The notes under the pieces are model-generated. The model saw only the letters and a list, made by a program, of their open reading frames with translations, was not told the DNA's origin and searched no databases. From assembly GCA_963765575.1 (NCBI GenBank), contig CAVXWZ010000001.1:352001-416000 (forward strand): a DNA stretch of 64,000 bases, written 5' to 3'. Source of the DNA: an uncultured cyanobacterium. Its GTDB lineage: Bacteria; Cyanobacteriota; Cyanobacteriia; PCC-6307; Cyanobiaceae. Of the stretch, positions 36,268 through 62,570 are shown piece after piece; the first letter of the stretch is position 1; each line of letters begins with the position of its first letter. The translations under genes and the position numbers were made by a program.

Positions 36268-36347
36268 GGCCGACAGGCTTGGAAACAACATGCACATCCA
36301 CAGGGATCCGGAAGTTGGTGCTGTTGTGGTTGCCCCCTTGATCCCCT

Positions 36348-37545
36348 TCACACCGCCACCGCCAGCTCCGGATAGAACGCCGCCGGGATCGGCTGCTGCA
36401 GCCGCCAGCGAATCGCCATCGGCCGCTCGCCTTCGTGGCTCAGGTAGTCGGCAAAACCAAGGCAGTGGAACGGCATGCGTGACGCCGCCCCTTTTGTTTT
36501 CCTCGCGCACAAACAGCAGCACCTGGCTGCCCCGCTCGCGGTGGTGGATGTAGCGCTGCCCGGTGGCGGAGGCTTCCCTGGTGAGGCTCTGGCTCTCCCA
36601 GTGGAACTCCCATGGGGAGATGGCGTAGTCGTTGTAGCGGGTGGTGGGGGAGAACAGGCGCTCGGATTTCTTGAGGGTGATGAAGAAGACGTCGCACTGG
36701 GTGGCTTCATCAAAGAACACCCCCTCGCGGCCAGGGAAGGGGCGGGCCTCGTTCAACAACCCAAAGGCGGCGAACACCTCGGCGCGGGAGTAGCGGCCGT
36801 GGAGGTCAAGGGGATGGGGGGCGGTTCGGCGCGGCCAGGAACGGCCAGTCGAGCGGCGCCACCAGGTGGTCGGTGCGCTCTAGCAGCAGCTCGAACAGCT
36901 CCACCAGCTCGGCGCGGAGGTCGGCGGCGGCCCAGAGCCGGGCGAGGGCCTCGGCCAGGGGCACGTGGTGCCGGCCGCTGCCCCACAGCTGGGCCATCAG
37001 CATGCGCCAGCTGCGCTCGGTGGCAGGATCGAAACCCGCCGGATCAGGCGCCATGGGCTGCTGCAGCTGATCCGCCAGCCAGCACAAGCGCTCGGGGTCA
37101 TCCAGATGCAGCAGTCCGCCGGAGATGCCCCGCCCCAGCCGCTGCTCATCGGCGCTGGGCTCGCCCGAGGCCGCCCCCGGCCAACCACCCCAGCTCCCGC
37201 TGCAGCAACGCCCACGACCCCGCCACCCGGTAAAACTCCCCCAGCTCCATCCCCAGCCCCTCCAACACCCCCGCCAGCGAACAGCGCCCGAGGCTGCGGC
37301 ATTCGGCTACCAGCTGGGGCCGCCGGCTGGGCAGCGACTCGCGCAGGTTCGGCCAGCACCCGCTCGCTCGACACGCGATCGAGCTGCAGGCTGCAGCCGG
37401 CCGGCAGGAAGGGAAAGCCGGTTTCGATCTGCTGGCGCAGCTGGTCGCGCGTGCCGCCGAACAGGGCGCGGTAGCGGAGGTCGAAGCGGAAGCTGCGGTG
37501 GGCCTGGCCGATGAAATCCAGCACCGTGAGGCAGCTTTTTCTCCG
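36348..37545 (-). pseudogene. 3' remnant of a DUF3427-domain SF2 helicase, several frameshifts, 5' part missing
   Basis: KSCLTVLDFIGQAHRSFRFD, FPFLPAGC, REGV...SPTTRYNDYAIS..FHWESQS, SHEGERPMAIRWRL. Confidence 0.8.
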
Positions 37546-37684
37546 GGCAGAGACGCAGCCCGCGGCCACACGTTCCAATCCCCTGGGCTTCTGCAGCAAG
37601 GGTGGAGTAGCTGTTTCACCCTGGGTAGAAATCAAGGCGAAATCGCCCAGAATCCGCAATCCTGTAGCCAGCTGTCCGTTTCCG

Positions 37685-38531: not shown

Positions 38532-40341
38532 ATGGCCACGCAGCGCTACTCGGTGACCCCCCATCCGATCGACACCCTGCTGACGTGGGTGAAGAGCGGC
38601 GAGATCGCCATTCCTGAGATCCAGCGGCCTTTCGTGTGGGAGGCCACAAAGGTGCGGAATCTGCTGGATTCCCTCTACCAGGGGTTTCCGGTGGGCTACC
38701 TCATCGCCTGGCGAAACCCCACAGTGAAGCTCAAGGACGGCACCACTTCTGCGGGGAAGCGCATCCTGATCGACGGACAGCAGAGGGTGACGGCCCTGAT
38801 GGCGTCGCTCCTGGGAATGGAGGTTCTGACGAAGGACTACGCGAGTGTTCGCATCCGCATTGCCTTCAATCCATTGGCAGGCGAAGACGAGCCGAGCTTT
38901 GAGGTGAGCAATCCTGCCATCGCCAAGAATCCGCTTTGGATCGCGGATGTCTCAAAGCTCTTCCAGACAGATGCGGATCTGTTTGAGCAGACCGATGCCT
39001 ATGTTGCACGCAATCCTGAGATCGATCGGAATCGAGTTGGCAAATCGCTCCAGAGACTCCTGAAGATCGTGAACAACTCTGTTGGCTTGATCGAGCTGGC
39101 TGAGGATCTTGACATTGAGACCGTTACCGAGATTTTTATTCGCGTCAACTCGGCTGGGGCCGAGCTCTCCCAGGCCGACTTTGCCATGTCAAAGATCGCC
39201 GTTAACGAGACCTATGGCGGCAACACACTCCGCAAGGCCATCGAATACTTCTGTCACCTAGCGATCTCGCCAGACTTCTTCTCCCAGATCGAGAAGAACG
39301 ATCCGGAGTTCGCCAGATCAGAATTTCTGACCAAGATGGCTTGGCTTAAGGACGTCAATGACGATCTCTACGACCCCACCTACACCGATATGCTGCGGGT
39401 GGCCTTCACCTCTGAATTCGGGAGAGGCAAGCTGCAGGATCTCGTGGCCCTGCTTTCAGGCAGGAACTTTGCCAGTAAGCAATACGAGGAGAGCATCGCA
39501 GAAGAATCCTTTGCCAAGCTGAAGCAGGGTGTTCTGGCGTTCATGAACAAGACCCATTTCGATCGGATCACGATGATCTTGAGATCGGCGGGGTTCGTGA
39601 CCAGCGACCTGATCCGCAGCCGCAATGCCATCAACTTTGCGTATATCCTCTATCTCAGGGGCAGGCGAGATCATTTGGCGGCGGATGATATCGAGCGGCT
39701 GGTTCGGCGATGGTTTGCCATGTCGATCCTCACCGGACGCTATTCCGGCAGCCCAGAGACAGCCTTCGATCTCGATATCCGTCAGATTGATTCCCAGGGT
39801 CTGCAGGCCTATGCCGAAGCGGTGATCGAGAACGAGCTGCCCTCCACCTTCTGGTCTGGGATGCTGCCCCAGCTGATGGATACATCGTCTTCGACGAGCC
39901 CCTACTTCATCGCTTATCAGGCAGCCCAGGCGCGGCTTGGGGATCGTGGCTTTCTTTCGGCGGGTATCACGGTGCGCGATCTTCTGCTGAATCGCGGCGA
40001 CAAGCACCATGTGTTCCCACGTAAGCATCTACAGCGGGGAGGAGCATCCAGGAGTCGATACAACCAGATCGCCAACTTCGTGATGGCGCAGAGCGAGATC
40101 AACATCGCGATTGGCGACAAGGCCCCCGAGGTCTACTTCGCTGAACTGCGCGAGCAGGTGAATGGTGGCTCCAAGCGTTACGGCGGCATCACCGATACAG
40201 CGGAGCTGAGGGCCAATCTGGTGATGAATTGCGTGCCGGTGGCTCTGCTTGGACGGTGAGCCCATGGAGTACGACACCTTCTTGGTGGAGCGGCGGCGAC
40301 TGATGGCGGACAAGATCCGCCAGTGGGTTGAGGTGCTGTGA
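38532..40341 (+). CDS. GmrSD-like (DUF262 plus C-terminal HNH-like) protein, frameshift near 40250
   Basis: [29 protein letters not shown]...NQIAN; the alternative frame ends [17 protein letters not shown] overlapping the hsdR start. Confidence 0.82.
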
Positions 40342-43300
40342 CCACAAATTTCGCCCAGCTGCGCCCTTACGACGAGCAGCTTTTCCGGCTGGGTGTGCTG
40401 GCCGAGCGCTATTTCCCCGAGGATCCCAATACAGCGCTCATCAAACTGCGCCAGCTCGGCGAGCGGTTGGCCCAGCAGGTGGCGTCCCGGTTTGGGGTGT
40501 TCACCAGCCTTGAAGAATCACAGCTGGCCCTGATCCGCCGGCTGGAGCTGGAGGGACTGATCGAGCGGGAGGTGGCCGGCCTCTTCCACGATCTGCGCAA
40601 GACCGGCAATGCGGCCACCCATGGGCTCCAGGGCGACCATGCCAGTGCCTTGAGCACCTTGAAGATTGCCTGGCAGCTGGGGGTGTGGTTCCACCGCACG
40701 TTTGGTGATCCGGAGTTCCGCAGCGGTCCCTTTCGGCCTCCCCAGCCGCCCGTTGATGAGAGCGAGGAACTGAGCCAGGAGCTGGCACGTCTGCAGAGTG
40801 CGCTCGACGCCTTTCGGGCGAACGAGACGGCGATGGCCGAGCAGCTCAGTGCCGCTGAAGCCCAGCTGCAGCAGGCCCTGGGCGAGCAGCAGCAATGGGA
40901 ACAACTGGCCGAGCAGGTGGAGGCCGACAAGGCAGCCCTCGCTGCCCAGCTGCAGGAGCTGCAGAGCGCTGCCGCCCAGCAACCAGCAGCCGTGACTTCA
41001 GGCCTGCGGCAGGCAGCGCGCACGGCCGCCGCCGCGATCGAGCTGGATGAGGCCGCCACCCGCCAGCTGATTGATGAGCAGCTGCGGGCAGCCGGGTGGG
41101 AGGCGGATACCCAAGCGCTGCGGTACGGAGCGGGGGCTCGGCCGCAGAAGAACCGCAATCTCGCCATTGCCGAGTGGCCCACCCGCAGCGGCCCGGCCGA
41201 CTACGTGCTGTTTGTGGGGCTCACGGCCATCGCGGCGGTGGAGGCCAAACGGGCCAACAAGGATGTGGCGGGCGTGCTGCCCCAGGCCCAGCGCTACTGC
41301 CGCGATTTCCAGCCCAGCAGCGACACTGGAGGAGCCCAGCCAACCGTGGGGCCCTGATGGGGAGTACCGCATCCCCTTCGCCTTCTCCAGCAACGGCCGG
41401 CCGTTTCTGCAGCAGCTGCGCACCAAAAGCGGGATCTGGTTTCGGGATCTACGCCGCAGCGAGCAACCTGGCCGTTCCCCTCGACGGCTGGTATTCCCCG
41501 GAAGGGCTGAGGGAGCTCGCCCGGCAGGACGTGGCCGGCGCCGATGCGCAGCTGCGCCGGGAGGCCTTCAGCTACGGCTTTCCGCTGCGCCCCTACCAGC
41601 GGCGGGCGATCGAGGCCACCGAAGCGGCGATCGCCGCAGGCCAGCGGGAGCTGCTGCTGGCGATGGCCACCGGCACCGGCAAAACCAAAACCTGCATCGC
41701 CCTGATCTACCGGCTGCTCAAGACGGGGCGCTTCCGGCGGGTGCTGTTTCTGGTGGATCGCTCGGAACTGGGCACCCAGGCCGCCGATGCCTTCAAGGAA
41801 ACGCGGATGGAGAGCCTGCAGAGCTTCGCCGACATCTACGGCATCAAGGAACTGGGCGAGCGCGAGGCCGAATCCGACACCAAGGTGCACATCGCCACCG
41901 TGCAGGCGATGGTGCAGCGGCTGCTGCTCGGCAGCGAGGAAGACAAGCCCACGGTGGACACCTACGACCTGATCGTGGTGGACGAATGCCACCGGGGCTA
42001 CCTGCTGGATCGGGAGCTCAGCGATCGGGAACTGCGCTTCCGGGATTTCAACGACTATGTGTCGAAGTACCGGCGGGTGCTGGAGCGGTTTGATGCCGTG
42101 AAGATCGGCCTCACGGCCACGCCGGCCCTGCACACGGTGGAGATCTTCGGGCAGCCGGTGTTTGTGTACAGCTACCGCGAGGCGGTGGTGGATGGCTACC
42201 TGGTGGATCACGAACCACCGATCCTGATCTCCACGGAGCTCTCCAGCGAAGGCATCCGCTGGGCCGCAGGAGAGGAGGTGAAAACCTACGACCCCGGCAC
42301 GGCCCAGATCGAGCTGTTCACCACGCCCGATGAGCTGCGCTTCGAGGTGGAGGCGTTCAACCGCCAGGTGATCACCGAACCCTTCAACCGGGTGGTGTGT
42401 GAGGTGCTGGCGAAGGAGCTGGATCCACTCTCGCCGCACAAAACCCTGATCTTCTGCGCCACCGATGCCCACGCCGATCTGGTGGTGCTGCTGCTCAAGG
42501 AAGCGTTTCGGGAGCATTACGGCGAGGTGGCCGATGACGCGGTGGCCAAGATCACCGGCGCCAGCGACAGGCCGAAGGAGCTGATCCGCCGCTACAAGAA
42601 CGAAGCCTTCCCCAATGTGGCCGTCACGGTGGATCTGCTGAGCACCGGGGTGGATGTGCCGGCCATCGGCAACATCGTGTTCCTGCGGCGCATGAACAGC
42701 CGCATCCTGTATGACCAGATGATCGGCCGTGCCACCCGCCTGTGCGAAGCGATCGGCAAGGACAGCTTCCGCATCTTTGATGCCGTGGGCATCTACCAGG
42801 CCCTGCAGAACTTCACCCAGATGCAGCCGGTGGTGGCGAACCCGAAGATCAGCTTCAGCCAGCTGCTCGGTGAACTGGAGAGCACCGGCGAGGAGGAGAG
42901 TGAGCTGGTGCGCGAGCAGCTGATCGCCAAGCTGCGCCGCAAGCAACGGCACCTGAGCGAGAACGCCGAAGCGCGGTTCCGGCTGCTCACCGGCGATGAA
43001 CCTGCCGCCTTCATCAGCCGCCTGCAGCAGCTGCCGATCGCCGAGGCGCGCCGCTGGCTGGGCACGATCAACGGCCTGGGCGAGCTGCTCGATGAGCAAT
43101 GGCAGGGGCCTGCCCAGCCCCAGTTCGTGTCGGAGCACGACGACGAGCTGCGCGCCATCGAGCGGGGCTATGGCGACGCCACCCGCCCGGAGGACTACCT
43201 GGAGGGCTTCACCGCCTTCGTGCGCGATCCCGGCAACGATCTACCGGCCCTCACCACGGTGCTGCAACGGCCGTGGGAGCTCAGCCGCAAGGATCTGCGG

Positions 43301-43696
43301 GAGCTGAAGCTGGCCCTCGATCAGCGCGGCTACAGCGAAGCCACCCTGGCCACCGCCTGGCGGGAAACCACCAACCAGGACATGGCCGCCTCGATCATGG
43401 GCTACATCCGCCAGGCGGCCCTGGGTGATCCGCTGGTGCCCTATGAGCAGCGGGTGGAGCGGGCCCTGCAGCGGATCCTGGCCTCGCGGGCCTGGACCAC
43501 GCCCCAGCGCCAATGGCTGCAGCGCATCGCCAACCAGACCAAAGCGATCACGATCGTGGACCGTGAAGCCCTCGACGACGACGCCCTGCTGTTCCGCCGC
43601 GAGGGGGGCGGCTGGCCACGGCTGAACAAGCTCTTCGGCGGCGAGCTGGAGACGGTGCTGCACCGCTTCCAGGAAGCGGTGTGGGAGGCGGCTTGA
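40338..43696 (+). CDS. hsdR: Type I restriction subunit R (EcoKI-like), frameshifts near 41330 and 41460
   Basis: GPADYVLF...VEAKR, MATGTGKT, DECHRGY, GLTATP, LLSTGVDVP, QMIGRATR. Confidence 0.92.
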
Positions 43697-43766
43697 CCCG
43701 CTGTACCACGGCTTCATCAAAGCCCACGTGCCGCATGGGCACGCCAAACGGTGGTATCATCAACGG

Positions 43767-44045
43767 GTGATCAGGTCGTTTCGTTGCCGAGACACCCTTG
43801 CGCTCTTCGAGGGTCGGCCGGTGAGGCGCTTCGGCAGCATCGCCCGCGTGGCTTGCCGCAAGCTGGCCATCCTCGATGCCGCCGGCTGCCTCAACGATCT
43901 GATGATTCCGCCAGGCAACCGCCTGGAGCCGCTCCGCGGAGACCGCCATGGCCAGCACAGCATCCGCATCAACGATCAGTTCCGGCTCTGCTTCGTCTGG
44001 ACGGAAGCCGGCCCAGAGGAGGTTGAAATCGTTGACTACCACTGA
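43767..44045 (+). CDS. higB: HigB (RelE-family) toxin
   Basis: IRSFRC...PPGNRLEPLRGDRHGQHSIRINDQFRLCFVW...EIVDYH. Confidence 0.9.
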   Translation: MIRSFRCRDTLALFEGRPVRRFGSIARVACRKLAILDAAGCLNDLMIPPGNRLEPLRGDRHGQHSIRINDQFRLCFVWTEAGPEEVEIVDYH

Positions 44046-44331
44046 ATTGATGCTGGTGCCCCCGGGTGAGGTGCTGCTGGAGGAGTTCCTGCGGCCGATG
44101 GGAGTCAGCCAGTACCGGCTGGCCCTGGCCATCGGCGTGCCGGAGAGCCGCATCAACGCGATCGTGAAGGGGCGGCGGGCGATCACCGCCGACACCGATC
44201 TGCGCCTTTGCCGGTTTTTTGGCCTCAGCGAGGGCTTCTGGCTGCGGATGCAGGCCAGCCATGACCTGAAGCTGGCCAAGCAGGCACTGGCCAGTGTTCT
44301 GCCAGCGATCGAGCCGTTGCAGCACGCCTGA
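44032..44331 (+). CDS. higA: HigA antitoxin (HTH)
   Basis: PGEVLLEEFL.PMGVSQYRLA...GRRAITADTDLRL..FFG.SEGFWLRMQ. Confidence 0.9.
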   Translation: MTTTELMLVPPGEVLLEEFLRPMGVSQYRLALAIGVPESRINAIVKGRRAITADTDLRLCRFFGLSEGFWLRMQASHDLKLAKQALASVLPAIEPLQHA

Positions 44332-44369
44332 TCTAGTCTTGGTATCGACCGTCTTGGAAGGCCAGAGCG

Positions 44370-44630
44370 ATGCGCGCCAAGCTCTTCCGCAACGGCCGCA
44401 GCCAGGCGGTGCGCCTGCCGGCTGCCTTTCGCTTCGAGGGAACGGAAGTGGAGATCGAGCGCGACCCGGAAACCGGCGCCGTGGTGCTGACGCCGGTGCG
44501 GCCATCGGCCCGTGCCTTGCTGGAGCTCAGGGATGCGTTGCTGCAGGAGCCTGGCTTCCGGGCCGAACTGGATGCGTTGTTCGAGGGGTTGCACGACACC
44601 CGTCCTGCCGAACCGGTGGACTTCCCCTGA
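44370..44630 (+). CDS. vapB: VapB antitoxin (AbrB fold)
   Basis: AKLFRNGRSQAVRLPAAFRF. Confidence 0.9.
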   Translation: MRAKLFRNGRSQAVRLPAAFRFEGTEVEIERDPETGAVVLTPVRPSARALLELRDALLQEPGFRAELDALFEGLHDTRPAEPVDFP

Positions 44631-45040
44631 TGGCTGCGGGGAACGAGAGGTTGATGCTGGACACCAACGCCATGAGCGCCTTTCTCAAACGACGCTCGCC
44701 ACGACTGGATGCCTGGGTGCGTGAGCAACGTTGTTGCCTGTCCGCCATTGTGGTGGCCGAGATCCGCTACGGGCTGGAGAAGCTGCCGCCCACTTCGCGG
44801 ATGCAGACGCGGTTACAAGAGCTGGCGGAGGCCACCCTCGAGACCCTGGAGATCCTGCCCTGGTCGGAAGCGTGCACGAGGATCTACGGCCGGCTGCGCG
44901 CCGATCTCGAACGCCATGGCAAGCCTCTGGCGGTGATGGATCTGCTGATCGCCAGCCATGCCCTCAGCGAAGGCTGCGCCCTGGTGACGGCCGATCAGGC
45001 CTTCGCCAACGTGGCCGAACTCCACCTGGAGGCCTGGTGA
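44630..45040 (+). CDS. vapC: VapC PIN-domain toxin
   Basis: MLDTN, AEIRYG, MDLLIASHA, LVTAD. Confidence 0.9.
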   Translation: MAAGNERLMLDTNAMSAFLKRRSPRLDAWVREQRCCLSAIVVAEIRYGLEKLPPTSRMQTRLQELAEATLETLEILPWSEACTRIYGRLRADLERHGKPLAVMDLLIASHALSEGCALVTADQAFANVAELHLEAW

Positions 45041-46504
45041 TGGCAGGCACCACCACCCACGACATCGTCGCCAAGCTCTGGAACCTCTGCAATGTGCTGA
45101 AGGACGACGGGGTGACGTACCACCAGTACGTGACGGAGCTCACCTATCTGTTGTTCCTGAAGATGGCGAAGGAAACCGGCACCGAAGCCGGGATCCCCGA
45201 GGAGTGGCGCTGGGATGCGCTGGAGCCGCTCAAGGGCCTCAAGCAGCTGGAGCACTACAAGCTGCTGCTGCTGGAGCTGGGCAGTTCCAGCAGCGGCAGC
45301 TCGATGCTGGTGCAGGAGATCTTCGCGAATGCCACCTCCTTCATCCGCAAGCCCGTCACGCTGAACAAGCTGGTGGAGGAGATCGACAAGCTGGATTGGT
45401 ACAGCGCCCGCCAGGAGGGCCTGGGCGATCTGTATGAGGGGCTGCTGCAGAAGAACGCCGAGGAGAAGAAATCCGGGGCGGGGCAGTACTTCACGCCCCG
45501 GCCGCTGATCGATGCGATGGTGGCGGTGATGCAGCCGCGGCTGGGGGATGTGATCCAGGATCCGGCGGCGGGCACCGGCGGCTTTCTGATTGCGGCCCAG
45601 CACTGGATCCGCGAACACCAGGACATCAGCGAGCTGGATGAGGCGCAGCAGAAGCGCTTCTACCAGAGCACCTTCTACGGCATGGAGCACGTGCAGGACA
45701 CGCACCGCCTGGCGCTGATGAACCTGATGCTGCACGGGCTGGATTCGGTGCAGGGCGAAGGCGGCATCCGCTATGGCGACACCCTCAGCAGCGATGGCGA
45801 GGGGCTGCCGAAGGCCAGCTTGATCCTCACCAATCCGCCCTTCGGCACCAAGAAGGGCGGCGGCCTGCCCAGCCGCAAGGATTTCACCTTCCCCACCAGC
45901 AACAAGCAGTTCTGCTTCCTGCAGCACATCTACCGGGCGCTGCAACCCGGCGGCCGGGCGGCGGTGGTGCTGCCCGACAACGTGCTGTTCGAAGGCAACG
46001 TGGGCAAGCAGATCCGCGCCGATCTGATGGACAAGTGCAACCTGCACACGATCCTGCGCCTGCCCACCGGCATCTTCTACGCCCAGGGCGTGAAGACCAA
46101 CGTGCTGTTCTTCACCCGCGGCAGCAGCGAGAAGGGCAACACCAAGGAGGTGTGGGTGTACGACCTGCGGGCCAACATGCCGGCCTTCGGCAAGCGCACG
46201 CCCCTCACCCGCGAGCATTTTGCGGACGTTCGAGGCGGCCTATGGCCCTGATCCGCTGGGGCTGGCCCCGCGCACGGCCACCGGGCCCGAGGGCCGCTGG
46301 CAATGCTTCAGCCGTGAGGAGATCGCCGCCCGGGGCGACAGCCTCGATCTGGCCTGGCTGAAGGACGACTCTGCCGAAGATGGCGCCGACCTGCCGGAGC
46401 CGGCGGTGCTGGCCCAGGAGGCGATGGTGGAGCTGGAAGGGGCGCTGGAGGATCTGCGGGCGATCCTGGCGGAGCTTGGGGAAGAGGTGGAGGAGTTGGT
46501 GTGA
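45040..46504 (+). CDS. hsdM: Type I methyltransferase subunit M, frameshift near 46230
   Basis: IVAKLWNLCNVLKDDG, GQYFTPR, DPAAGTGGF, NPPF, DSLDLAWLKD. Confidence 0.93.
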
Positions 46505-53274: not shown

Positions 53275-54228
53275 TCAGCGCCTCAGCGCTTCCCGGTGGG
53301 CACTTAGGAACATCTCCTGCTCCCGACTGAACGGCCGAATCAGGTTCGCCCCCTCGATTCCCCAGCAGCGCAAGGCCTCCCGGGCCGCCTCGTGTTGCCA
53401 GATCAGCTGTCCGCCCCAATCGAAGCTGATCCAGTGGCGATCAAACAGTTTGTCCACATGGGGGGAGAGCAGCAGGCCATTGGCGCCGCTCAGCCGTTCG
53501 CTGTTGTCGCAGGATCGCCAGGGCTTGATGTGGCTGGCCACCAGGAACTCCTGCCGCGCCAGCCCCGTGACCCGGCAGGCCGGCTCCAGCTCCGACACCC
53601 GATGGCGAAACAAGCCCTGCCCCAGCCGCGCTTTGGTGAGTGCATTGCGCTCGGTGCTGCTGGGCACCTCCCGCAGTCGCTGCATGTCATCGAGCAACGC
53701 GGCGGTGTACTCCCCCTCTTCCGCCAGCACCACCAGGTGCACTCGCACCGCCGGATCGGCGTGCTCCTCGATCAGCTGGAGCAACAGCAGCCCCAGACTT
53801 TCGCTCAGCCCGGCCAGGTACACCCCCTGGTTGCCCCGGCCTGTGCTGGTGCTGATCGGGCTGTGGCGCTCCGGCAGCAGCGGTTGCAGCAACGCAAAGA
53901 ACGTCTGCGGCACCAGCGCCTTGCGCAGCGGCTGCCAGTTCACCCGCACCAGCCAGCCCTCCTGGCTCCAGTTCTCCCCTGCTGAGCCGAACTCCGGCGG
54001 CTTGGGTGCCGTGATCGCCGCCGTTTCCACCAGGCCGAGCTGGCTGATCCGCCCCTTGGCATAGCTGAACACCACATCCCCCCGCTGGCAGCGGCTGAGG
54101 TTGTCGTAGGTCACGTTGCGGGCGCCGTTGGCATTCGTCTTCGGCGACCAGATGTAGCCGCCGTCGGTCTCCTGCCGGTACGTCTGCTTGTGGTTCACCC
54201 ACCAGTAGGAGGGCACGGATTCAGACAA
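53275..54228 (-). CDS. HNH endonuclease with EVE/PUA-like N-terminal domain
   Basis: YWWVNHKQTY..E..GGYIWSPK...GDVVFSY; ARLGQGLFR...CRVTG...LVASHIKPW...NGLLL.PHVDKLFD. Confidence 0.85.
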   Translation of the reverse strand: MSESVPSYWWVNHKQTYRQETDGGYIWSPKTNANGARNVTYDNLSRCQRGDVVFSYAKGRISQLGLVETAAITAPKPPEFGSAGENWSQEGWLVRVNWQPLRKALVPQTFFALLQPLLPERHSPISTSTGRGNQGVYLAGLSESLGLLLLQLIEEHADPAVRVHLVVLAEEGEYTAALLDDMQRLREVPSSTERNALTKARLGQGLFRHRVSELEPACRVTGLARQEFLVASHIKPWRSCDNSERLSGANGLLLSPHVDKLFDRHWISFDWGGQLIWQHEAAREALRCWGIEGANLIRPFSREQEMFLSAHREALRR

Positions 54229-54295
54229 GGCTGGCCTCGTTGTAGCCGTGGTGGGGCGGTGTGTCCTCAGGCGGGCCGTCTCGATGGAATCACCA

Positions 54296-54617
54296 CCTCA
54301 CCCCGTTGCTCGCGGAATCCGTCCAGCCGCTGGCGGCACAGCTGCAGCAGCGCGTCGCGCTCGGTGTCGCTCAGCTCCTCCGCGCCGATCAGGCTGTAGA
54401 GCCCATCGCCATAGCGGGTGATGCCGTTGCCGGTGAGCACGCGGCCCACCATCCGTTTCCCCAGGATCCGCCGGGCGATGTCCTGCGCCGGGGCCGGGCT
54501 GCGGCGGCCCAGCAGTTCCATGAGCATCAGGGGTTGATCGATGGGGCTCATGCGCATCCGCTGGGCGATGGTGTGCCGGAGGCGCTCGTAGGTAGTGGAG
54601 GGGTTTGGGGGCATGGG
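54296..54617 (-). repeat. Array repeat A: 5' fragment of an HNH/HIT-type gene
   Basis: MPPNPSTTYERLR..IAQRMRMSPIDQPLMLMELLGRRSPAPAQDIARRILG...REQRGE; near-identical DNA at five other places. Confidence 0.9.
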
Positions 54618-54625
54618 AGACCCCA

Positions 54626-55020
54626 TCAGGGATCACGGTCAGAACCTGGCAGGATCAGTTCGTTCACACGACCAGCAGCGCTTTCACCTGTCGGTTGTAG
54701 TGCGTTCGATCCAGCCCCAGAGGGGTGGGATCAGCGTCATAGCGGAATTGCACGGCGTAAACGGTGAGCTGAGCCAGCGGCTCCAGATCTGCCGTGCTCT
54801 CACCGGCTGCGGCGAGAGCAGCAGCAGCCGACGCAGATCATGGGTGAGAGGCGCATCAACGTCCAGATGCAGCAGCCAGGCTTTCAAGCCTTCTCACGGC
54901 CTGCTGAAGCCAGAAGCCCCAGGCACCCTCCCGGAACACGGCGGGATCGCTGCTGGCCTCAGCCGTCTCCAGGTCGGCAGTGGCGATCTTCAGCACGCCT
55001 TCCGGCTCAGAGAGCACCAT
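54626..55020 (-). CDS. HEPN-domain protein, frameshifted
   Basis: MVLSEPEGVLKIATADLE...GFWLQQAV(EK).LKAWL...THDLRRL. Confidence 0.7.
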
Positions 55021-55354
55021 CGAGCAAGCGCCCCTCCCGATAGGCCCTGCCGATCACGTGACTGCGCCAGTGGCGGCGCTCCACGCACTCCCGCTGCGAA
55101 TAGAGCAGAAGATCGAGGGACACATCCGCCTGAGCCAGCTCGTCCCAGAGCTGGTTGAGCACCTCGAAGCGGTGGTGGCCCTCAAGCCAGGCATCCGGTG
55201 CGGTGATCAGCAGGTCGATGTCCGATTCCGGCCCCGCTGTGCCACGCGCCCGGGAGCCGAACAAGCGCACTTCGGCGCCTGGGATCCTTTGCCGGATCAC
55301 AGCCGCCATCCGCTGGAGGCGCTGCTCGATCGGTGGCGCGGCGGCGCTGGTCAT
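55007..55354 (-). CDS. Minimal nucleotidyltransferase (MNT) antitoxin
   Basis: LFGSRARG...SDIDLL...REGRLL. Confidence 0.88.
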   Translation of the reverse strand: MTSAAAPPIEQRLQRMAAVIRQRIPGAEVRLFGSRARGTAGPESDIDLLITAPDAWLEGHHRFEVLNQLWDELAQADVSLDLLLYSQRECVERRHWRSHVIGRAYREGRLLDGAL

Positions 55355-55389
55355 GCCGCCATTCTGGGCAGGGTCTTATCGGGCTGGTA

Positions 55390-55450
55390 GCGGGGGTGGG
55401 GAAACCGGGCTGGGCCGTCATGGGGGTGGCACTGGAGGAGGAGAAGAATT
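55390..55450. repeat. Array repeat G: diverged copy of the G-rich upstream motif only
   Basis: GGGGGTGGCACTG...GGAGAAG; 55420-55620 is also duplicated at 57374-57575. Confidence 0.7.
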
Positions 55451-55530
55451 GGCGTCATGACATGCCCTTCCCCGGACCCCGCCTCACTCCAGGAAGCGTA
55501 CCTACGATGGATTCCTTGCCTGGGGGTGTG

Positions 55531-55755
55531 ATGGCGTTTGCGCCCATGTCTGACCTTCTCCAACTCCCGCAGAGCGAGCGGCTGGCCCTGGCGATCGCCC
55601 TGTGGGACAGCCTCGATGACCAGGCCCGGGATGGGGCGTTGCCGGTCGACCCTGCCCTCTGCGCGGAGCTCGACCGGCGCTGGGCCACCCATCTCGACAA
55701 CCCGGACGAGGCTCTGGCCTGGGATGAGGTTCGGAGCCAGCTCGACCTCGGCTGA
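55531..55755 (+). CDS. Addiction-module antitoxin (TIGR02574-like), copy 1
   Basis: LLQLPQSERLALAIALWDSL...ELDRR...WDEVR. Confidence 0.85.
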   Translation: MAFAPMSDLLQLPQSERLALAIALWDSLDDQARDGALPVDPALCAELDRRWATHLDNPDEALAWDEVRSQLDLG

Positions 55756-55757
55756 CC

Positions 55758-56048
55758 ATGCGCCCAGTTCGCTTCCTGCCGGATGCGGTGCAGGATCTTC
55801 TGGCGACTCAGCGCTGGTATGGCATGCGGGAGCCTGCGTTGGCTCGTGACTTTGCTGAAGTCTGCGCTGCTGCGGTGGAGCGCATCCGCTGCGATCCCCG
55901 ATCCTTCCCCTTGGTTCACGGGCAGATCCGCAGGCTCGTCATGAAGCGTTTTCCCTATGCCGTCTACTTCCGGGAGCAGGGCGATGAAATCCTGGTGATC
56001 GCCCTTCACGGCCGCCAGGATCCCAAGCTTTGGCAGCAGCGCACCTGA
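55758..56048 (+). CDS. ParE/RelE-family toxin
   Basis: VRFLPDA..DL....WY...IRRLVMKRFPYAVYF...ALHGRQDP. Confidence 0.85.
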   Translation: MRPVRFLPDAVQDLLATQRWYGMREPALARDFAEVCAAAVERIRCDPRSFPLVHGQIRRLVMKRFPYAVYFREQGDEILVIALHGRQDPKLWQQRT

Positions 56049-56163
56049 AACGTCCGTTGGACAGACCCCATTCATGGGCCTGATGTGGAAACGTTCCTAC
56101 GTTGATTCGCCTGGAGACAGCTGAGTGGGGTTCCCGATGGCTGGGCAACTGCCTGGCGGCCCG

Positions 56164-56578
56164 TCACTCGCAGCGGCCCCGTGCCCTTGTGAGCACCCGG
56201 TACTTCACCGAACCGCTGATCGGGCTGCGGTGGCGGGAGCGATGGGCAAACACCTCCTCACCCCGTTGCTCGCGGAACCCGTCCAGCCGCTGGCGGCACA
56301 GCTGCAGCAGCGCGTCGCGCTCGCTGTCGCTCAGCTCCTCCGCGCCGATCAGGCTGGTAGAGCCCATCGCCATAGCGGGTGATGCCGTTGCCGGTGAGCA
56401 CGCGGCCCACCATCCGTTTCCCAGGATCCGCCGGGCGATGTCCTGCGCCGGGGCCTGGGCTGCGGCCGGCCCAGCAGTTCCAGGAGCATCAGCGGTTGGT
56501 CGATGTGGCTCATGCGCATCCGCTTGGCGATGTACTGCCGGAGGCGCTTGTAGGTGGGGGAGGGGTGCGGGGGCATGG
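56164..56578 (-). repeat. Array repeat B: longest 5' fragment, reaching the start of an HNH zinc finger
   Basis: MPPHPSPTYKRLRQYIAKRMRMSHIDQPLML...EEVFAHRSRHRSPISGSVKYRVLTRARGRCE*. Confidence 0.9.
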
Positions 56579-56787
56579 AGCGATGGTGGCGGCTGCCGGG
56601 CGCCTGGGCCAGGTTTGGTTTCGGGCGGCCCGTCAGGCGAACCCCCTGCTGGGATCCCTTCTGGTGCGGGCGTCGTGGCGGCTGCAGCCAACCCGGCTCC
56701 AGCTGTGGCTGTGCCGCCCCATCCCTCTGCCCAGACAGAGACAGCATCCCTGCCCCCACTGCCAGACTGGTGCCGCTGGAGGGCGTC

Positions 56788-57180
56788 ATGCAGGAAATCC
56801 TTTTCGTGGTCGAGGAAGCGGAGGATGGCTCCTTCCGGGCCAGCGCAGCTGCCGCCGCGATCCACACCGAGGCCGACACCCTTGAGGAGCTCCACCGGGA
56901 GATCCGCGACGCCGTCGTCTGCCACTGTCGATCCCGGCAAGGCGTTGCCGACTCCGTGATCTCGCACATCCATCCGATGAGGCAGATGAACTGTCATGGC
57001 CCTGTGGATTTCACGGACGTCAACGGCCAGTCTTGGCCGACTATTGTCAGGAGCTAGTGGTGACTCGCAGACATCCAGTCACATGCGGTTGACCCAGATA
57101 TCGCACGAAGTCGCATTCAGATTCCGCCGACAGCCTCTGAGGCGTTGTCACCTTGCGGCAATCATTAAGGATTGAGCCGG
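56788..57180 (+). pseudogene. HicB-like (DUF1902-type) gene plus degenerate HicA-like remnant
   Basis: MQEILFVVEEAEDGSFRA...IHTEADTLEELHREIRDAVVCH; downstream fragments DVNG and SSHMRLT. Confidence 0.6.
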
Positions 57181-57289
57181 CCAGTGGGCTGTCGCTCGGA
57201 GCTGCAGCCTGGTACTTTGAGGCCCCCGGGCGGCTAATCCCCTATGGCCGCTCCAGAGTCATGCGGATTTGATGATGGGGCTTCCATGC

Positions 57290-57400
57290 CGCATGCGCCG
57301 GCGATCTGCCGGAGGCGCTCGTAAGTGGGGGAGGGGTGCGGGGGGCATGGGGGCATCCTGGCTGGGGTGTGACGGGGGTGGCACTGACCAGGGAGAAGCT
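57290..57400 (-). repeat. Array repeat C
   Basis: TGCCGGAGGCGCTCGTAAGTGGGGGAGGGGTGCGGGGGGCATGGGGGCATCCTGGCTGGGGTGTGACGGGGGTGGCACTGA. Confidence 0.9.
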
Positions 57401-57481
57401 TTGGCGTCCTGTCATGCCCTTCCCCGGACCCTGCTCCACGCCAGGAAGCGTGCCTGCGATGGATTCCTTGCCTGGGGTGTG

Positions 57482-57575
57482 ATGGCGTTTGCGCCGATGT
57501 CCGACCCGCTCCAACTCCACCAGAGCGAGCGGCTGGCCCTGGCGATCGCCCTGGGGGGGACAGCCTCGATGACCA
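57482..57575 (+). pseudogene. Addiction-module antitoxin copy 2, truncated
   Basis: MAFAPMSDPLQLHQSERLALAIAL; identity to copy 1 ends at CCTCGATGACCA. Confidence 0.8.
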
Positions 57576-57645
57576 TGCCCCCGGTATCCAGGATGGTGGA
57601 AATGCCTTGGCCTGGTGCCAGAATGAATGTCGCGTCGATGTCCTG

Positions 57646-57822
57646 ATGCCCAAGACCGACCCAGAGCTTCAGCGGCTGCGTCAGCAGGCCAGTTCACTGT
57701 CGCTGGGTTCGCGCATCATCCGTGCGGTGGCCAGTTCCACGGCCATCGAAACGGGTCAGTCGGTTGCTGAAATCGAACGTGAACTCAGGAATCGACAATC
57801 CTCCCAGTCAACACCTGCCTGA
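57646..57822 (+). CDS. Putative Fic antitoxin (58 aa)
   Basis: RAVASSTAIETGQS resembles the (S/T)xxxE(G/N) inhibitory helix; adjacent to a Fic gene. Confidence 0.6.
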   Translation: MPKTDPELQRLRQQASSLSLGSRIIRAVASSTAIETGQSVAEIERELRNRQSSQSTPA

Positions 57823-58415
57823 ACAGATCCTCCATTGGGGTGACATTCAGCACGGCCCCCGCCCGGATCGCGGCGAAGTACAGGTCCCGCTGACGATCCC
57901 ATTCTGAATAGTCGAGCGGACCAATCCCCGCTTGGCACGCCATCACATCAGCCAGCAGTCGGGCGATTCGACCATTGCCTTCGCGGAACGGATGGATGAG
58001 CACGAATTCAACATGCACCTCAGCAAGTCCCCTGATCAGTGCACCCATCGAGTCTGGGTTGAACGGAGTCAGCCGACACCAGATACTCCGATTCGAATGA
58101 CTTGAGCAGATCTGGCAAAAGATGAGCACTCGCGAAAGCAAAGCCTTGTTTGCTCAGATTGAACGTCCGAACCTTTCCTGCCCAGGAATAGACAGACCCC
58201 AGCCATTGCCGATGCCAGCCGATCAAATCTGAAATCCTCAGGCGGTTGGTTGGAGCCCCATTCCCGATGATCGTCTGATAGAGATCGAGAAGCAGGTCCC
58301 GCTCCACGCCCTCCATCACCGCCGGATCCTTGATGCCCAGGCGATTGCTCAGAACCAGATCATTCGATCCTGGCTCACACTCCGCGGCAGAGCCGACGAC
58401 CCTGTAGCGACTCAT
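57785..58415 (-). CDS. Fic-domain protein, frameshift near 58050
   Basis: HPFREGNGRIAR; N-terminal VLSNRLGIKD, WH..WLG.VY.WAG..R. Confidence 0.88.
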
Positions 58416-58471
58416 CGGTTCTCTCCCAGGATCTGCTGAAGCTCACTGGCCCCGCAGCGCTCACAGCGGCT

Positions 58472-58620
58472 GGCAGTTCCATGAGCATCAGCTCGATTGG
58501 TCTCATGCGCATCCGCTCGGCGATGGTCTGCCGGAGGCGCTCGTAGGTGGGGGAACGGGCCGGGGGCATGGGGGCATCCTGGCTGGGGTGTGACGGGGGT
58601 GGCACTGATGGAGGAGGAGC
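58472..58620 (-). repeat. Array repeat D
   Basis: MPPARSPTYERLRQTIAERMRMRPIELMLMEL plus the G-rich motif. Confidence 0.9.
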
Positions 58621-58705
58621 GATGGCCCCCCTTCCTCCATTGCCCCCACCCACCCGATGGGACCGACGCCATGGCCTCCCTGCTGATCCGGCCCAAGGGC
58701 ACGGA

Positions 58706-58722
58706 GGTAGACACTGTCTACC
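58706..58722. promoter_or_regulatory. Palindromic operator candidate for the DUF1778 antitoxin
   Basis: GGTAGAC-ACT-GTCTACC, perfect 7-bp arms, about 40 nt upstream of the start. Confidence 0.55.
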
Positions 58723-58759
58723 CATGAAGCTAGGCTGCAAGGAGGTTTGCGGCACGGCC

Positions 58760-59033
58760 GTGGCTGCCACTCCTCGCCTCAGCTGGAACCTGCGGGTCTC
58801 GCCCGACGATCAGGCCCTGATCGATCGCGCCGTCCGTGCCTCCGGGCTCACCCGAACCGACTTCGTTCTGCAGGCGGCCCGCACCGCCGCCCGTGAGCTG
58901 CTGGTCCAGCAGAGCTGGCAGTCCGTGTCGTCCGAACAGTTCGACCAGCTTCTCCGCCTGCTGGATGCTCCCCCAAGCCCCACGTGACCGCCTGCAACGC
59001 ACCATGACCGCGCCGAGGCCCTGGCAACGCTGA
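58760..59033 (+). CDS. DUF1778 (TacA/AtaR-type) antitoxin, frameshift near 58975
   Basis: NLRVSPDDQALIDRA....G.TRTDFVLQAA..AA...FDQLLRLLDAPP. Confidence 0.85.
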
Positions 59034-59533
59034 TGGAGCTGCTGGCGCCGCAGCCCCTGGCCAGCCACCACAGCACAGTGGGCTTCGACTGCGGCGACAC
59101 CAGCCTGGATCACTGGCTCCGGCAGCGTGCCCTGCCGAATCAGCAGAGCGGTGCGACACGCACGTTTGTGGTCTGCGATGGCGACGGCACCGTCAAGGCC
59201 TATGTGGCTCTGGCCTCCGGTGCCGTGGCGGTGGCCTCAGCACCCGGGAGCTTTCGTCGCAACATGCCCGATCCCATTCCGGTTGTGCTGCTGGCACGGC
59301 TGGCGGTCTGCCGCAGTGTGCAAGGTCGCGGCATCGCGCGTGCCCTGCTTGCCGATGCGTTCGAGCGGGTCCTTCAGGCCAGCGAACGGATCGGCGTTCG
59401 CGGCATCGTGGTCCACGCTGCTTCCGCGGACGCCCGCAACTTCTATCTGCACATGGGTTTCGATCCCTCACCCATCGATCCCGACACCCTCCTGATCCGT
59501 CTCTCGGATGTGGCGGCAACCCTGGGGTTGTGA
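59033..59533 (+). CDS. GNAT toxin (TacT/AtaT-type)
   Basis: FDCGDTSLDHWL...RRNMPDPIPVVLLARLAV...QGRGIA...FYLHMGF. Confidence 0.9.
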   Translation: MELLAPQPLASHHSTVGFDCGDTSLDHWLRQRALPNQQSGATRTFVVCDGDGTVKAYVALASGAVAVASAPGSFRRNMPDPIPVVLLARLAVCRSVQGRGIARALLADAFERVLQASERIGVRGIVVHAASADARNFYLHMGFDPSPIDPDTLLIRLSDVAATLGL

Positions 59534-59615
59534 GCGGCCCTGGATGGAGGCTTCGTAGCCGTAACCCCCTCGCCGCTGATCAGCGAGGTTCCGCTGTTCC
59601 TGTTCCGGGTGATGA

Positions 59616-59826
59616 CCTGCGCCGGGGCCGGGCTGGTTGTTGCCTGGCAGATCCGTGGCCCAGCAGTTCCATGAGCATCAGCGATTGATCGATGGGGCTC
59701 ATGCGCATCCGCTCTGCGATGGACTGCCGGAGGCGTTCGTAGGTGGGGGAGGGGTGTGGGGGCATGGGGGAATCCTGGCGGGGTGAGACGGGGGTGGAAC
59801 TGACAAAGGAGAAGCCTCGCTGCCGT
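59616..59826 (-). repeat. Array repeat E
   Basis: MPPHPSPTYERLRQSIAERMRMSPIDQSLMLMELLG plus the G-rich motif. Confidence 0.9.
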
Positions 59827-59918
59827 GGCGCTCACGCGCTCTCCTTCACCCCACAAGGGCCTGGCGCCCAGAGCCCATCAGCGGGTCAGCCCCGTGGGCA
59901 CGTAGCACGCGCGCTAAC

Positions 59919-60203
59919 ATGGAAGGGTCGTTTCGGCTTGAGTACTACAACGCTCGTGTTCGCGAGGACATCGAGGACTAGGCCTCCTGCGATCTCCTGA
60001 AAGCGCGATGCATCACTCTCGGCGGCGGCCTGTTCGAACTCAGGCCCAGAGGCCGTTCCGGCATCGGCCGGGCCTTCTACTGCTTCTGCGGTGGCCGGGT
60101 GATCACCGTGCTCCATGCCTTCGTGAAGAAGACCCAGAAAACAGCCAGGCGTGAGCTCCTCATCGCTCGCGAACGCCTCAGGAACGTCAAACGCTATGCC
60201 TGA
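59919..60203 (+). pseudogene. RelE/Gp49-like (HigB2-type) toxin with early stop/deletion
   Basis: LGGGLFELRPRGRSGIGRAFYCF...LHAFVKKTQKT; TAG near 59980. Confidence 0.75.
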
Positions 60204-60531
60204 CATCCCCTATCAACCGGTCATCCGCGATCGCGGTGCCGAACGCGCCCGGCTCGATCAGGTGCCGGGCTACAGCGAAGCGCGGCAGGAGGCCGCCGTG
60301 GAATTCCGTCTGCTCCGGCAGCTCCTGGAGGCACGCCAGCGGGCCGGTCTCACCCAGGAGGAGGTCGCCGTGCGGATGGGCACCACGCGCAGCGCCATCA
60401 GTCGGCTCGAGGGATCCCGCAAGCACATACCCGCACTGTCCACTCTCCGCCGCTACGCCGATGTGCTCGGCTGCGATGTGGAAATCCAGCTGGTGCCTCG
60501 AACCCCTGATGAAGCTTCACCGCCTTGGTGA
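60196..60531 (+). CDS. XRE-family HTH antitoxin
   Basis: ARQRAGLTQEEVAVRMGTTRSAISRLE...LSTLRRYA. Confidence 0.88.
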   Translation: MPDIPYQPVIRDRGAERARLDQVPGYSEARQEAAVEFRLLRQLLEARQRAGLTQEEVAVRMGTTRSAISRLEGSRKHIPALSTLRRYADVLGCDVEIQLVPRTPDEASPPW

Positions 60532-60549
60532 GCGGCGGTGGAGGGCATC

Positions 60550-60878
60550 GAGGCGCTGGCGGCACAGCTGCAGCAGCACGTCGCGCCCCTCGCCGTAGCG
60601 GGTGATGCCGTTGCCGGTGAGCACGCGGCCCACCATCCGTTTCCCAGGATCCGCCGGGCGATGTCCTGCGCCGGGGCCGGGCTGGCTCCTGCCCCAGCAG
60701 TTCCAACCGCTGCGCGGAAGCCTTCGGCTACAGCATCAGCGGTTGATCGATGGGGCTCATGCGCATGTGCTCGGCGATGTAGGCGCGGAGGCGCTCCGGG
60801 GGAGGGAGGCAGAAGCATCGGGGCATCCTGGCTGGGGTGTGACGGGGAGGGCACTTGTAGGCAGAAGCCTTGCTGCCG
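60550..60878 (-). repeat. Array repeat F, with an internal deletion and a short insertion
   Basis: Matches repeats A and B (GCTGGCGGCACAGCTGCAGCAG...CCAGGATCCGCCGGGCGATGTCCTGCGCCGGGGCC) plus the G-rich motif. Confidence 0.9.
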
Positions 60879-60953
60879 TCTCCTCGATCCATCCCATCGC
60901 GTCCTCCGTCGTGGAGCGTGCCTACCCTGTGTTCTCAGCCGTCCGCCGTGGCG

Positions 60954-61172
60954 ATGACACCCCTGTCTGACCTCCTTCAGCTGCCCCAGAGCGAGCGCCT
61001 GGCCCTGGCGATCGCCCTCTGGGACAGCGTGGATGACGAGGCCCGCGATGGGGCGCTGCCGCTCGATCCCGACCTCTGCGCTGAGCTGGATCGGAGCTGG
61101 ACGGCCCATCTCAGCAACCCTGACGCAGCTCTGGGCTGGGATGAGGTGCGCAGCCAGCTCGGCATCGAATGA
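60954..61172 (+). CDS. Addiction-module antitoxin copy 3
   Basis: LSDLLQLPQSERLALAIALWDSVDDEARDGALP, paralogous to 55531-55755. Confidence 0.85.
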   Translation: MTPLSDLLQLPQSERLALAIALWDSVDDEARDGALPLDPDLCAELDRSWTAHLSNPDAALGWDEVRSQLGIE

Positions 61173-61345
61173 CGCTCCCTGCAGTGCGCTTCCTGCCTGA
61201 GGCGCTGGAGGAGCTCCTGGAAACCCAGCACTGGTACGGAACGCGTGAGCCGGCGTTGGCCAACGACTTTGCCCAAACCGTTGCTGCTGCGGTGGAGCGC
61301 ATTCGCCACAGTCCCCAATCCTTCCCCTTGATTCACGGCCGTTCC
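61169..61345 (+). pseudogene. ParE-family toxin, truncated after FPLIHG
   Basis: Paralogous to the first half of 55758-56048. Confidence 0.8.
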
Positions 61346-61347
61346 TC

Positions 61348-61704
61348 TTGCCTGAACGGGGACGTGCCCGGAATTGGTCGCGCTTCCTCCTGAACATGCG
61401 GGGGTGCTGCTCGAAGATCCTCAGGTACAGCCAGGGGCTCACCAAACAGCACTCACGTACTGACGAGATGATGGTTGACGCCGACCTGCGCAATCTGGAG
61501 GTGCTGGGTGAAGCGGCGAAACAGAATCCGCCGGCGCGGTTCGTGAGCGCCCCCCCAGGTGCCCTGGCGACGCATGTCTGGCCGCCGCGATGCTGGGTAC
61601 ATGCCTACTTCGGCCTGGAAGAAGACACCATCTCGCAGATTGTTTGCAAGAGCATTCCAGCCCTGACTGACCAGTTGGACCAAGTGGTTGAGGCTGAGCT
61701 CTGA
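61348..61704 (+). pseudogene. DUF86/HepT-like HEPN remnant
   Basis: DADLRNLEVLGEAAK...VHAYFG....I..IV...IP.L; RxxxxH region degraded. Confidence 0.65.
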
Positions 61705-62045: not shown

Positions 62046-62570
62046 ATGACCGTTCTGGGGAGAGAGGCGATCCTGCAGGCGATCCAGCAGGGCTCCATCA
62101 CGGTCACCCCGTTCGATCCCGAGCGGCTGGGTCCCGCCTCGCTCGACCTCACCCTCGCCCCCACCTTTCGCGTGTTCCGCAAGGTGCACGAGGTGATCGA
62201 AGTGCGTGAGCACACCGATTACAGGCAGCTCACCGAGAAGATCGAGGTGCCCGAGGGCCAGCACATCCTGATCATGCCGGGCGAAACGGTGCTCGGCATC
62301 ACCCAGGAGCGGCTGCGCCTGGGCCCCGGGCTGTGCGGCTGGCTGGAGGGTCGCAGCCGTTTCGCGCGGCTGGGCCTGATGGTGCACATCAGCGCCCCCT
62401 TCATGGGGCCGGGGATCGACAGTCAGCAGGTGCTGGAGATGAGCAATTTCGGCCCCGCTCCCCTGGCTGTGCATCCCGGCACCGCGATCTGCCAGTTCGT
62501 GTTCCAGAAGCTGCAGGGCAGCGAGAGCTACGCCGGACTCTTCGCTGGCCAGACGGAAGACTCCTTTTGA
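62046..62570 (+). CDS. dcd: dCTP deaminase (trimeric dUTPase superfamily)
   Basis: PASLDLTL, EGRSRFARLGL, LEMSN, ICQFVF. Confidence 0.85.
   Translation: MTVLGREAILQAIQQGSITVTPFDPERLGPASLDLTLAPTFRVFRKVHEVIEVREHTDYRQLTEKIEVPEGQHILIMPGETVLGITQERLRLGPGLCGWLEGRSRFARLGLMVHISAPFMGPGIDSQQVLEMSNFGPAPLAVHPGTAICQFVFQKLQGSESYAGLFAGQTEDSF

Follow-up and report, generated by a model that had tools for sequence, protein, structure and literature searches.

Truncated copies of an HNH-HIT gene as likely recombination anchors in toxin-antitoxin arrays of picocyanobacteria

How chromosomal toxin-antitoxin (TA) clusters and defence islands acquire genes in places without an integrase or a transposase is an open question, and the mechanisms have been called poorly characterised (PMC13617665; the published sources are cited here from their accessible parts). 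A locus of an uncultured cyanobacterium of the family Cyanobiaceae poses this question in a form that can be read. The window, a stretch of 64,000 nt (GenBank assembly GCA_963765575.1, contig CAVXWZ010000001.1, positions 352,001 to 416,000), carries between 54 and 62 kb an array of different TA genes separated by copies of one repeat. One such copy, or stub, is kept per gain, and the ends of the stubs can be matched across species, so the locus holds a record of its own growth. The record suggests that broken copies of a gene likely act as reusable swap points, by which TA pairs are traded and reordered between species without a dedicated integrase.

The repeat was traced to a gene whose intact form in the relatives G013, G009 and G010 (G and L are our own handles for genomes and loci) encodes a protein of 333 aa with the Pfam domains HNH and HIT. 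By sequence comparison, the repeat is the 5′ end of this predicted HNH-HIT gene together with its leader. The copies are direct repeats on a single strand with 71–93% pairwise DNA identity and E-values down to 1e-139 in the within-genome comparison. The first-pass annotation, made from the letters of the window, had placed seven copies there in one orientation, and the measured extents, all on the minus strand, lie close to the starts it gave. Copy A (54267..54670; repeat match 54288-54670, ORF, i.e. open reading frame, 54267-54614) is the terminal remnant of the gene with 55 nt of leader. Of the roughly 1002 nt of the gene it has nt 1-366, from which 39 nt are deleted internally, fused to the last codons; it is thus the terminal gene with a large internal deletion. 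Copies B to F are 5′ stubs. Copy B (56165..56720, the leader end being approximate) is a stub of nt 1-449 (56165-56578) with a second leader type, copy C (57269..57400) reaches to about nt 81, copy D (58473..58620) to about nt 103 and copy E (59605..59815) to nt 144, each with its leader, and copy E carries an insertion marker common to several species. Copy F (60540..60867) is a degenerate stub to nt 340 with leader. Copy G (approximately 55391..55433), as judged by sequence comparison, consists of the leader motif alone, with neither coding part nor gene start. The claim that the copies are truncated on the left at differing points thus holds for B to F, but A is not simply truncated in this way, being fused to the end of the gene. 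The protein start MPPxPSPTYERLR, assigned to six copies, is clear in A, B, D and E, but frameshifted in C and degenerate in F. A scan of the array for promoters and terminators showed no excess over shuffled sequence, and a search for a structured RNA in the repeat gave no Rfam family match, a single match falling far below its gathering score. A segment of 39-40 nt (nt 155-195 of the HNH-HIT gene) is lacking from 49 copies, which come from 20 genomes or loci, whereas 23 copies have it; its absence occurs on more than one allele background and may be either an inherited marker or a recurrent deletion, and the segment contains one arm of a short imperfect palindrome.

Misassembly of a strain mixture, against which the first-pass annotation had warned, is unlikely to have produced the array. 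Contigs from four runs of four studies bridge neighbouring units, mostly at 95–99% identity. The joins covered are A-HEPN/MNT-G-antitoxin, MNT-G-ParE-left end of B, Fic-D-TacA/TacT and D-TacA/TacT-E-HigB..HigA-F, the last of which includes a 226-nt skip in HigB; none of the independent contigs from these runs spans the whole array. Moreover, arrays occur in the single-contig genomes G002, G012 and G013. Misassembly was rejected on these two grounds. Assembly errors may account for some of the frameshifts of the window, as all four runs differ from it by one base at two of them.

Within this genome the repeat is confined to two arrays and is therefore not scattered genome-wide. The second array lies on contig C3 (L001 11700-18200; G000:C3:55.7-62.2 kb), with an inner HNH gene 92% identical and a GH57-like outer flank 81% identical. 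Its cargo (VapBC, DUF433/DUF5615, HicB, an addiction module, BrnTA and MazEF) is wholly unlike that of the window, and its blocks are 94–97% identical to the array of G012. Beyond this genome, the anchor was detected in 22 of 31 other genomes of the genus (E <= 1e-8), in at least two places in each. With a query limited to the N-terminal 115 aa, it was found in none of 250 other genomes of the phylum. The expectation that relatives would show the same anchor with different cargo and a variable copy number was borne out, with 0-1 up to 12 copies. The best-scoring named HNH-HIT homologues are labelled Cyanobium or Synechococcus, and the host is thus presumably a picocyanobacterium of that group, of a small freshwater type. 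The arrays usually have dCTP deaminase or GH57-like genes on one side and a defence island on the other, and the locus L150, with the flank, a single gene, an attC site and zero stubs, represents the ground state. The HNH-HIT family was also surveyed across all prokaryotes through the best 80 of 594 loci, of which 62 have at least 4 kb of upstream sequence. Of these 62, six are picocyanobacterial, and four of the six have coding stubs; none of the 56 others has any, one of them carrying a 42-nt non-coding duplicate; 60 of 733 control tiles showed an upstream repeat. Arrays as a general property of the family were thus not seen.

The arrangement is alike in the 29 array regions compared. Successive copies are separated by gaps with a median length of 769 nt; a TA gene was found in 80 of these 85 gaps, and inverted copies are absent. 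The cargo falls into 27 TA families, which recur in varying order between genomes; of their 140 instances, 109 are encoded on the opposite strand from the anchor. The 96 incomplete copies end across nt 14-945, with no single site, and on the leader side homology fades over about 40 nt. Copy completeness showed a trend toward the 3′ end of the gene (rho -0.44, from 101 non-independent copies). Three of the five gaps without a recognised TA gene (L042 15.3-15.8 kb, L044 11.2-11.9 kb and L142 9.3-9.9 kb), at least two of which share a junction, start in a way that suggests one small unannotated gene, a candidate TA or defence component. In G002, transposase genes of the IS3, IS481 and IS21 families are inserted into the array (L033 3.5-4.6 kb and 10.6-14.2 kb).

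The broken ends of the stubs were then informative about exchange. Thirteen broken-end junctions are common to several genomes. Eight junction groups have both neighbours named, and in these the module behind the junction was constant in 8/8 while the module in front differed in 6/8, which is the pattern expected from crossovers inside the stub. Complex insertion markers in stubs are common to 8 and to 14 genomes or loci. Contigs of near-identical strains join one copy to the cargo of another, from 56568 to 58586 (X8, from B to the cargo of D) and from 54606 to 57341 (X1 and X6). Blocks shared between species are 93–97% identical, compared with flank-tile medians of 77–89%, a weak baseline of 0-5 tiles per genome. 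We therefore favour, with a probability of roughly 0.6, the reading that TA modules sit between truncated 5′ copies of the HNH-HIT gene and that the arrays grow and are reshuffled by homologous recombination inside these copies, without a recombinase of their own.

The same comparisons bear on a second explanation, in which [TA + gene start] is duplicated in place within each genome and the TA genes then diverge or are replaced, with little exchange between species. The antitoxin/ParE module does occur three times in the window, and the newest stub of G013 is closest (94.8%) to its own intact gene. However, pairs of the same family within a genome share only 78–80% identity, below the blocks shared between species, which themselves exceed the flank medians, and the nearest neighbour of a copy lies in the same genome for only 6 of 41 copies and in another genome for the remaining 35. 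In-place duplication is thus largely refuted as the main process and, taken as a full account, quite improbable; as the birth of the first units it is possible.

Under the favoured reading, recombination inside the stubs, the array would arise in four steps. In the first, DNA with a TA module and an HNH-HIT gene would rarely be joined, by illegitimate recombination, inside the resident copy of the gene. The join could be anchor-assisted, with incoming DNA, or could result from a partial duplication in place, and it would give [old TA][5′ stub][new TA][gene]. In the second, a unit would run from the 3′ part of one stub through a TA module into the start of the following stub, with homology on both sides. 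Crossovers within stubs could then add, delete and reorder such units and carry them between species, probably after natural transformation; in this genome the frames of ComEC and DprA are open. The junction pattern described above is what this step would leave, and RecA would be the presumed agent. In the third, stubs and toxins erode by deletion and frameshift, which is seen as a trend. In the fourth, which is speculative, recombinants that retain the resident TA module would have an advantage, through addiction, over recombinants in which it is replaced, and this would account for a cargo that consists almost entirely of TA genes. A wider proposal can be put forward tentatively, at somewhat less than even odds: the stubs would be shared, inheritable homology arms, a recombinase-free counterpart of the integron, through which at least 27 TA modules circulate genus-wide as stub-flanked units at both edges of the island, addiction turning replacement into accumulation.

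Since the array resembles an integron at first sight, attC sites were searched with a covariance model built from 17 attC sites, which recovers five clear sites absent from its training set. No attC was found in the window or between units in 42 sources, and with the filters off the best score within the window array was 7.6 bits. The contig has a single tyrosine-recombinase match, a fragment that lies some 58 kb away from the array, in agreement with the earlier remark that no integrase, transposase or clear attC is visible. No transposase match was obtained among the 27 ORFs of 50.8-64 kb in a Pfam scan, a separate transposase-family search not having been made in this genome. The window array has no attC boundary per cassette, no fixed crossover point and no adjoining IntI with attI. 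The term "integron-like" therefore fits its appearance but not its structure, and identity with an integron cassette array was rejected on the absent attC and the dispersed ends. Neither is the repeat an attC under this model, nor does it behave as an insertion sequence (IS) or a miniature inverted-repeat transposable element, as it is limited to two arrays, with no inverted copies and with variable ends; this was judged without an IS library. A tRNA as integration target was ruled out, as the window has no tRNA.

Integrons are nevertheless close at hand. In seven loci (G013, G009, G023, L062, L122, L138 and L150), a true attC array lies on the opposite strand and begins some 10-20 nt past the stop codon of the HNH-HIT gene, with a spacer that differs in each genome read; the attC starts lie at L036 12063-12149, L039 11465-11553, L042 3845-3935, L062 318-377, L122 10994-11078, L138 2395-2484 and L150 10861-10947. 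IntI lies near the arrays in G018 and G013 and as a remnant in G023, the intI remnant of G013 being oriented toward its cassettes. The present genome has an IntI with an open frame on contig C2 and six attC sites, all on other contigs than the window (integron sites at G000:C2:324875-327517, C2:556783, C11:394465-395162 and C11:664751), and one cassette of the C2 integron resembles MazEF by eye. A resident integron integrase, or a tyrosine recombinase acting in trans, could thus have made the units, for example by excising [HNH-HIT + TA] between attC and a secondary site and reinserting it, with the attC and the 3′ halves lost later. We consider this unlikely, because attC is lacking between the units, arrays occur equally where the HNH gene and not attC comes next, and L150 has attC yet carries no stubs. 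Moreover, the end points are dispersed, and stubs without attC are also found at a helicase gene.

This second gene lies at the other edge of the island. In the window it is represented by the 3′ remnant of a PLD-helicase-DUF3427 gene (36343..37567, minus strand; C1:388343-389567), whose family was assigned from an intact homologue. In 7 of 10 loci (L034, L039, L044/L072, L047, L071, L124 and L138) TA genes and stubs that repeat the 3′ end of this gene on the same strand lie behind it, and the remaining three have at most 1.3 kb of DNA downstream. No attC was found among these stubs. Such a mirror array of 3′ stubs indicates that the process is not bound to one particular gene or to a promoter. 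The earlier proposal that a gene start with its upstream region serves as a reused anchor is thus supported, with refinements: the anchor has been identified as the HNH-HIT fusion, but the process is not special to gene starts.

The mirror array also bears on two further explanations. In one, a nuclease, either the HNH-HIT protein or neighbouring restriction enzymes, breaks DNA in or near the gene, and copying from a donor with end-joining duplicates the outer end of the gene each time. The geometry would fit without a circular intermediate, and the island is rich in restriction-type genes. On the other hand, most copies lack the capacity to encode an intact nuclease, as do all those of this genome, the mirror array is built on a different gene, and the 56 non-picocyanobacterial loci of the family carry no stubs; we hold this explanation to be improbable. 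In the other, the arrays are relics of repeated integration of mobile elements (an integrative and conjugative element, a prophage or a tycheposon-like element) at the 5′ part of the gene, with a replacement start, later trimmed to their TA genes. Tandem partial copies of the target are typical of integrative elements. Mobile elements trimmed to TA islets have been described (Belot et al., 2026, PMC13617665). However, no recurrent integrase remnant was found in the 84 ORF clusters of the arrays, 64 of whose representatives were scanned along with the core families of the window and of C3, and there is no fixed att point. Moreover, the anchor was not found in the plasmid collection, its phage matches were limited to three of 46 nt, and viral contigs gave only relatives of about 50% identity. 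An origin of the anchor from plasmids or phages thus has no supporting match in these searches, and the mobile-element explanation appears highly improbable.

Several observations weigh against recombination inside the stubs as the builder of the arrays. The terminal copy is the longest in just 11 of 21 arrays, so that polarity is a trend only, and part of the spread of end points may reflect later erosion of a fixed site. Joints placed inside repeats may stem from best-match assignment. True attC arrays stand behind the HNH-HIT stop codon in seven loci, IntI genes lie nearby in three genomes, and coding stubs are lacking in the 56 non-picocyanobacterial loci. RecA-type exchange and competence as the route are inferred from sequence patterns. 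For the first step, the anchor-assisted integration proposed for type VI secretion system (T6SS) arrays leaves the anchor unduplicated (PMC5361080), so a less usual geometry would be needed here. For the fourth, addictive TAs in Photorhabdus were reported to give no long-term protection of chromosomal neighbourhoods (Belot et al., 2026, PMC13617665), which weakens it.

Among known systems, the closest are the T6SS immunity arrays of Vibrio cholerae (Kirchberger et al., 2017, PMC5361080) and the Rhs C-terminal displacement cited there, which show the same recombinase-free accretion beside a conserved gene. For the T6SS arrays, it was likewise proposed that homology-facilitated illegitimate recombination creates the units and homologous recombination spreads them; copies of the same genome do not cluster and the toxic half is lost first, as here. 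In those arrays, however, the old effector gives way to the incoming module and persists as remnants, whereas here a piece of the anchor stands between all units and gives homology on both sides. The T6SS modules are alleles of one secreted effector slot, whereas here about 27 unrelated intracellular type II TA families are present as free-standing operons; and, as far as the accessible text of that paper goes, a second, mirrored array at the other edge of an island is found only here. The locus thus shares with displacement arrays the accretion at an anchor without a recombinase and the horizontal acquisition of units, and lacks secreted-effector cargo. It works like a sequential-displacement array yet is not a member of that class.

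Integron cassette arrays and clusters of attC sites lacking integron-integrases (CALINs) are alike in their units of about 1 kb, one-way punctuation, strain-variable order and TA cargo, and true integrons abut the same gene in the seven loci. They differ in that the array described here has no attC and no conserved crossover point, and a punctuation of 50-1000 nt derived from coding sequence. The TA spots of Photorhabdus (Belot et al., 2026, PMC13617665) resemble it in TA clustering, high turnover, toxin-first decay and a suggested spread by homologous recombination; they are tied to transposases, integrases or Tn3 res sites, and no gene-stub punctuation was seen in the accessible text.

Freshwater and estuarine picocyanobacteria hold up to 42 TA pairs per strain, with TA pairs in genomic islands (PMC12413379, PMC5498466). 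In their accessible parts, the papers on these pairs (PMC5498466, PMC12413379, bioRxiv 10.64898/2025.12.17.694815) give counts and island location and not array structure, and the first two treat TA counts and expression without a mechanism of accumulation. A variable defence locus without stubs appears in the accessible part of PMC5398294. No description of this array was found in the literature searched, from which subscription journals were mostly absent. The array is real, genus-wide and of the homology-anchored accretion type, and apparently undescribed; because its stubs are pseudogenes, they would probably escape standard annotation. In structural terms, the array goes some way to explain the TA richness reported for non-marine picocyanobacteria (PMC12413379), and culturable strains allow a direct test of pseudogene fragments as recombination handles and of addiction as a bias toward addition.

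The state of the TA modules was tallied for 119 instances, 21 of the 140 being excluded for want of a toxin reference. Seventy-four were intact, in 24 the antitoxin was intact but the toxin broken or missing, 4 showed the reverse and 17 were otherwise damaged. The tally is automated and rough: its references were drawn from the same set and so were scored intact, including the HigB fragment of the window, and toxins are longer and often lie nearer to the broken junction.

The cargo of the window array shows the same mixture of intact and broken genes. Behind copy A lie a HEPN toxin gene in frameshifted pieces (54684..55020, minus strand), whose intact homologue (L045:573-971) matches Pfam HEPN, and an intact minimal nucleotidyltransferase (MNT) antitoxin (55007..55354, minus strand; NTP_transf_2). 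An addiction-module antitoxin (55546-55755) and a ParE toxin (55758-56048), both intact, follow on the plus strand (55546..56048; Unstab_antitox, ParE_toxin). The next module (56788..57170, plus strand) comprises a broken HicB-like ORF and a HicA-like remnant, recognised by a HicA match on the homologue L045:4111-4263. An antitoxin remnant (57474-57580, plus strand) precedes a small candidate Fic partner (57646-57822, plus strand) and a frameshifted Fic gene (57785-58415, minus strand; Pfam Fic). The module at 58760..59533 (plus strand; TacA1, Acetyltransf) consists of a DUF1778-type TacA antitoxin, frameshifted near its end in this assembly, where all four independent runs differ from the window by one base, and a TacT GNAT toxin (59033-59533). 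A HigB/Gp49-type toxin with an internal stop and an intact XRE antitoxin (60196-60531) occupy 59920..60531 (plus strand; Gp49, HTH_3). The last module (60954..61704, plus strand) holds an intact addiction-module antitoxin, a truncated ParE and a HepT remnant, labelled from Pfam, including a HepT-like match, and shows 79.5% DNA identity to the copy at 55532-55921.

Most labels given in the first-pass annotation were therefore confirmed, MNT, Unstab_antitox, ParE, Fic, TacA1, GNAT, Gp49, HTH_3 and HepT-like by Pfam and HEPN and HicA through intact homologues in relatives. Pfam gave no match for the HicB-like ORF or for the Fic partner, and both are presumed identities, named from position. Wherever both were seen in a genome, the Fic gene and the small ORF taken as its candidate partner point toward each other and overlap at their 3′ ends (window 57646-58415; also G002, G011, G015 and G023), a layout atypical of TA pairs.

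The array is flanked on its inner side by an HNH nuclease gene (53275..54228, minus strand; Pfam HNH_2), the usual neighbour of the terminal copy, also on contig C3 and in relatives, and on its outer side by a dCTP deaminase gene (62046..62570, plus strand; Pfam DCD), the usual outer flank in the genus. Type I restriction-modification genes lie at 40338-46504; hsdR and hsdM each seem to be split across frames, and two small TA-like operons (43821-45040) stand between them. A 3′ fragment of hsdR was also found captured inside the array of G023.

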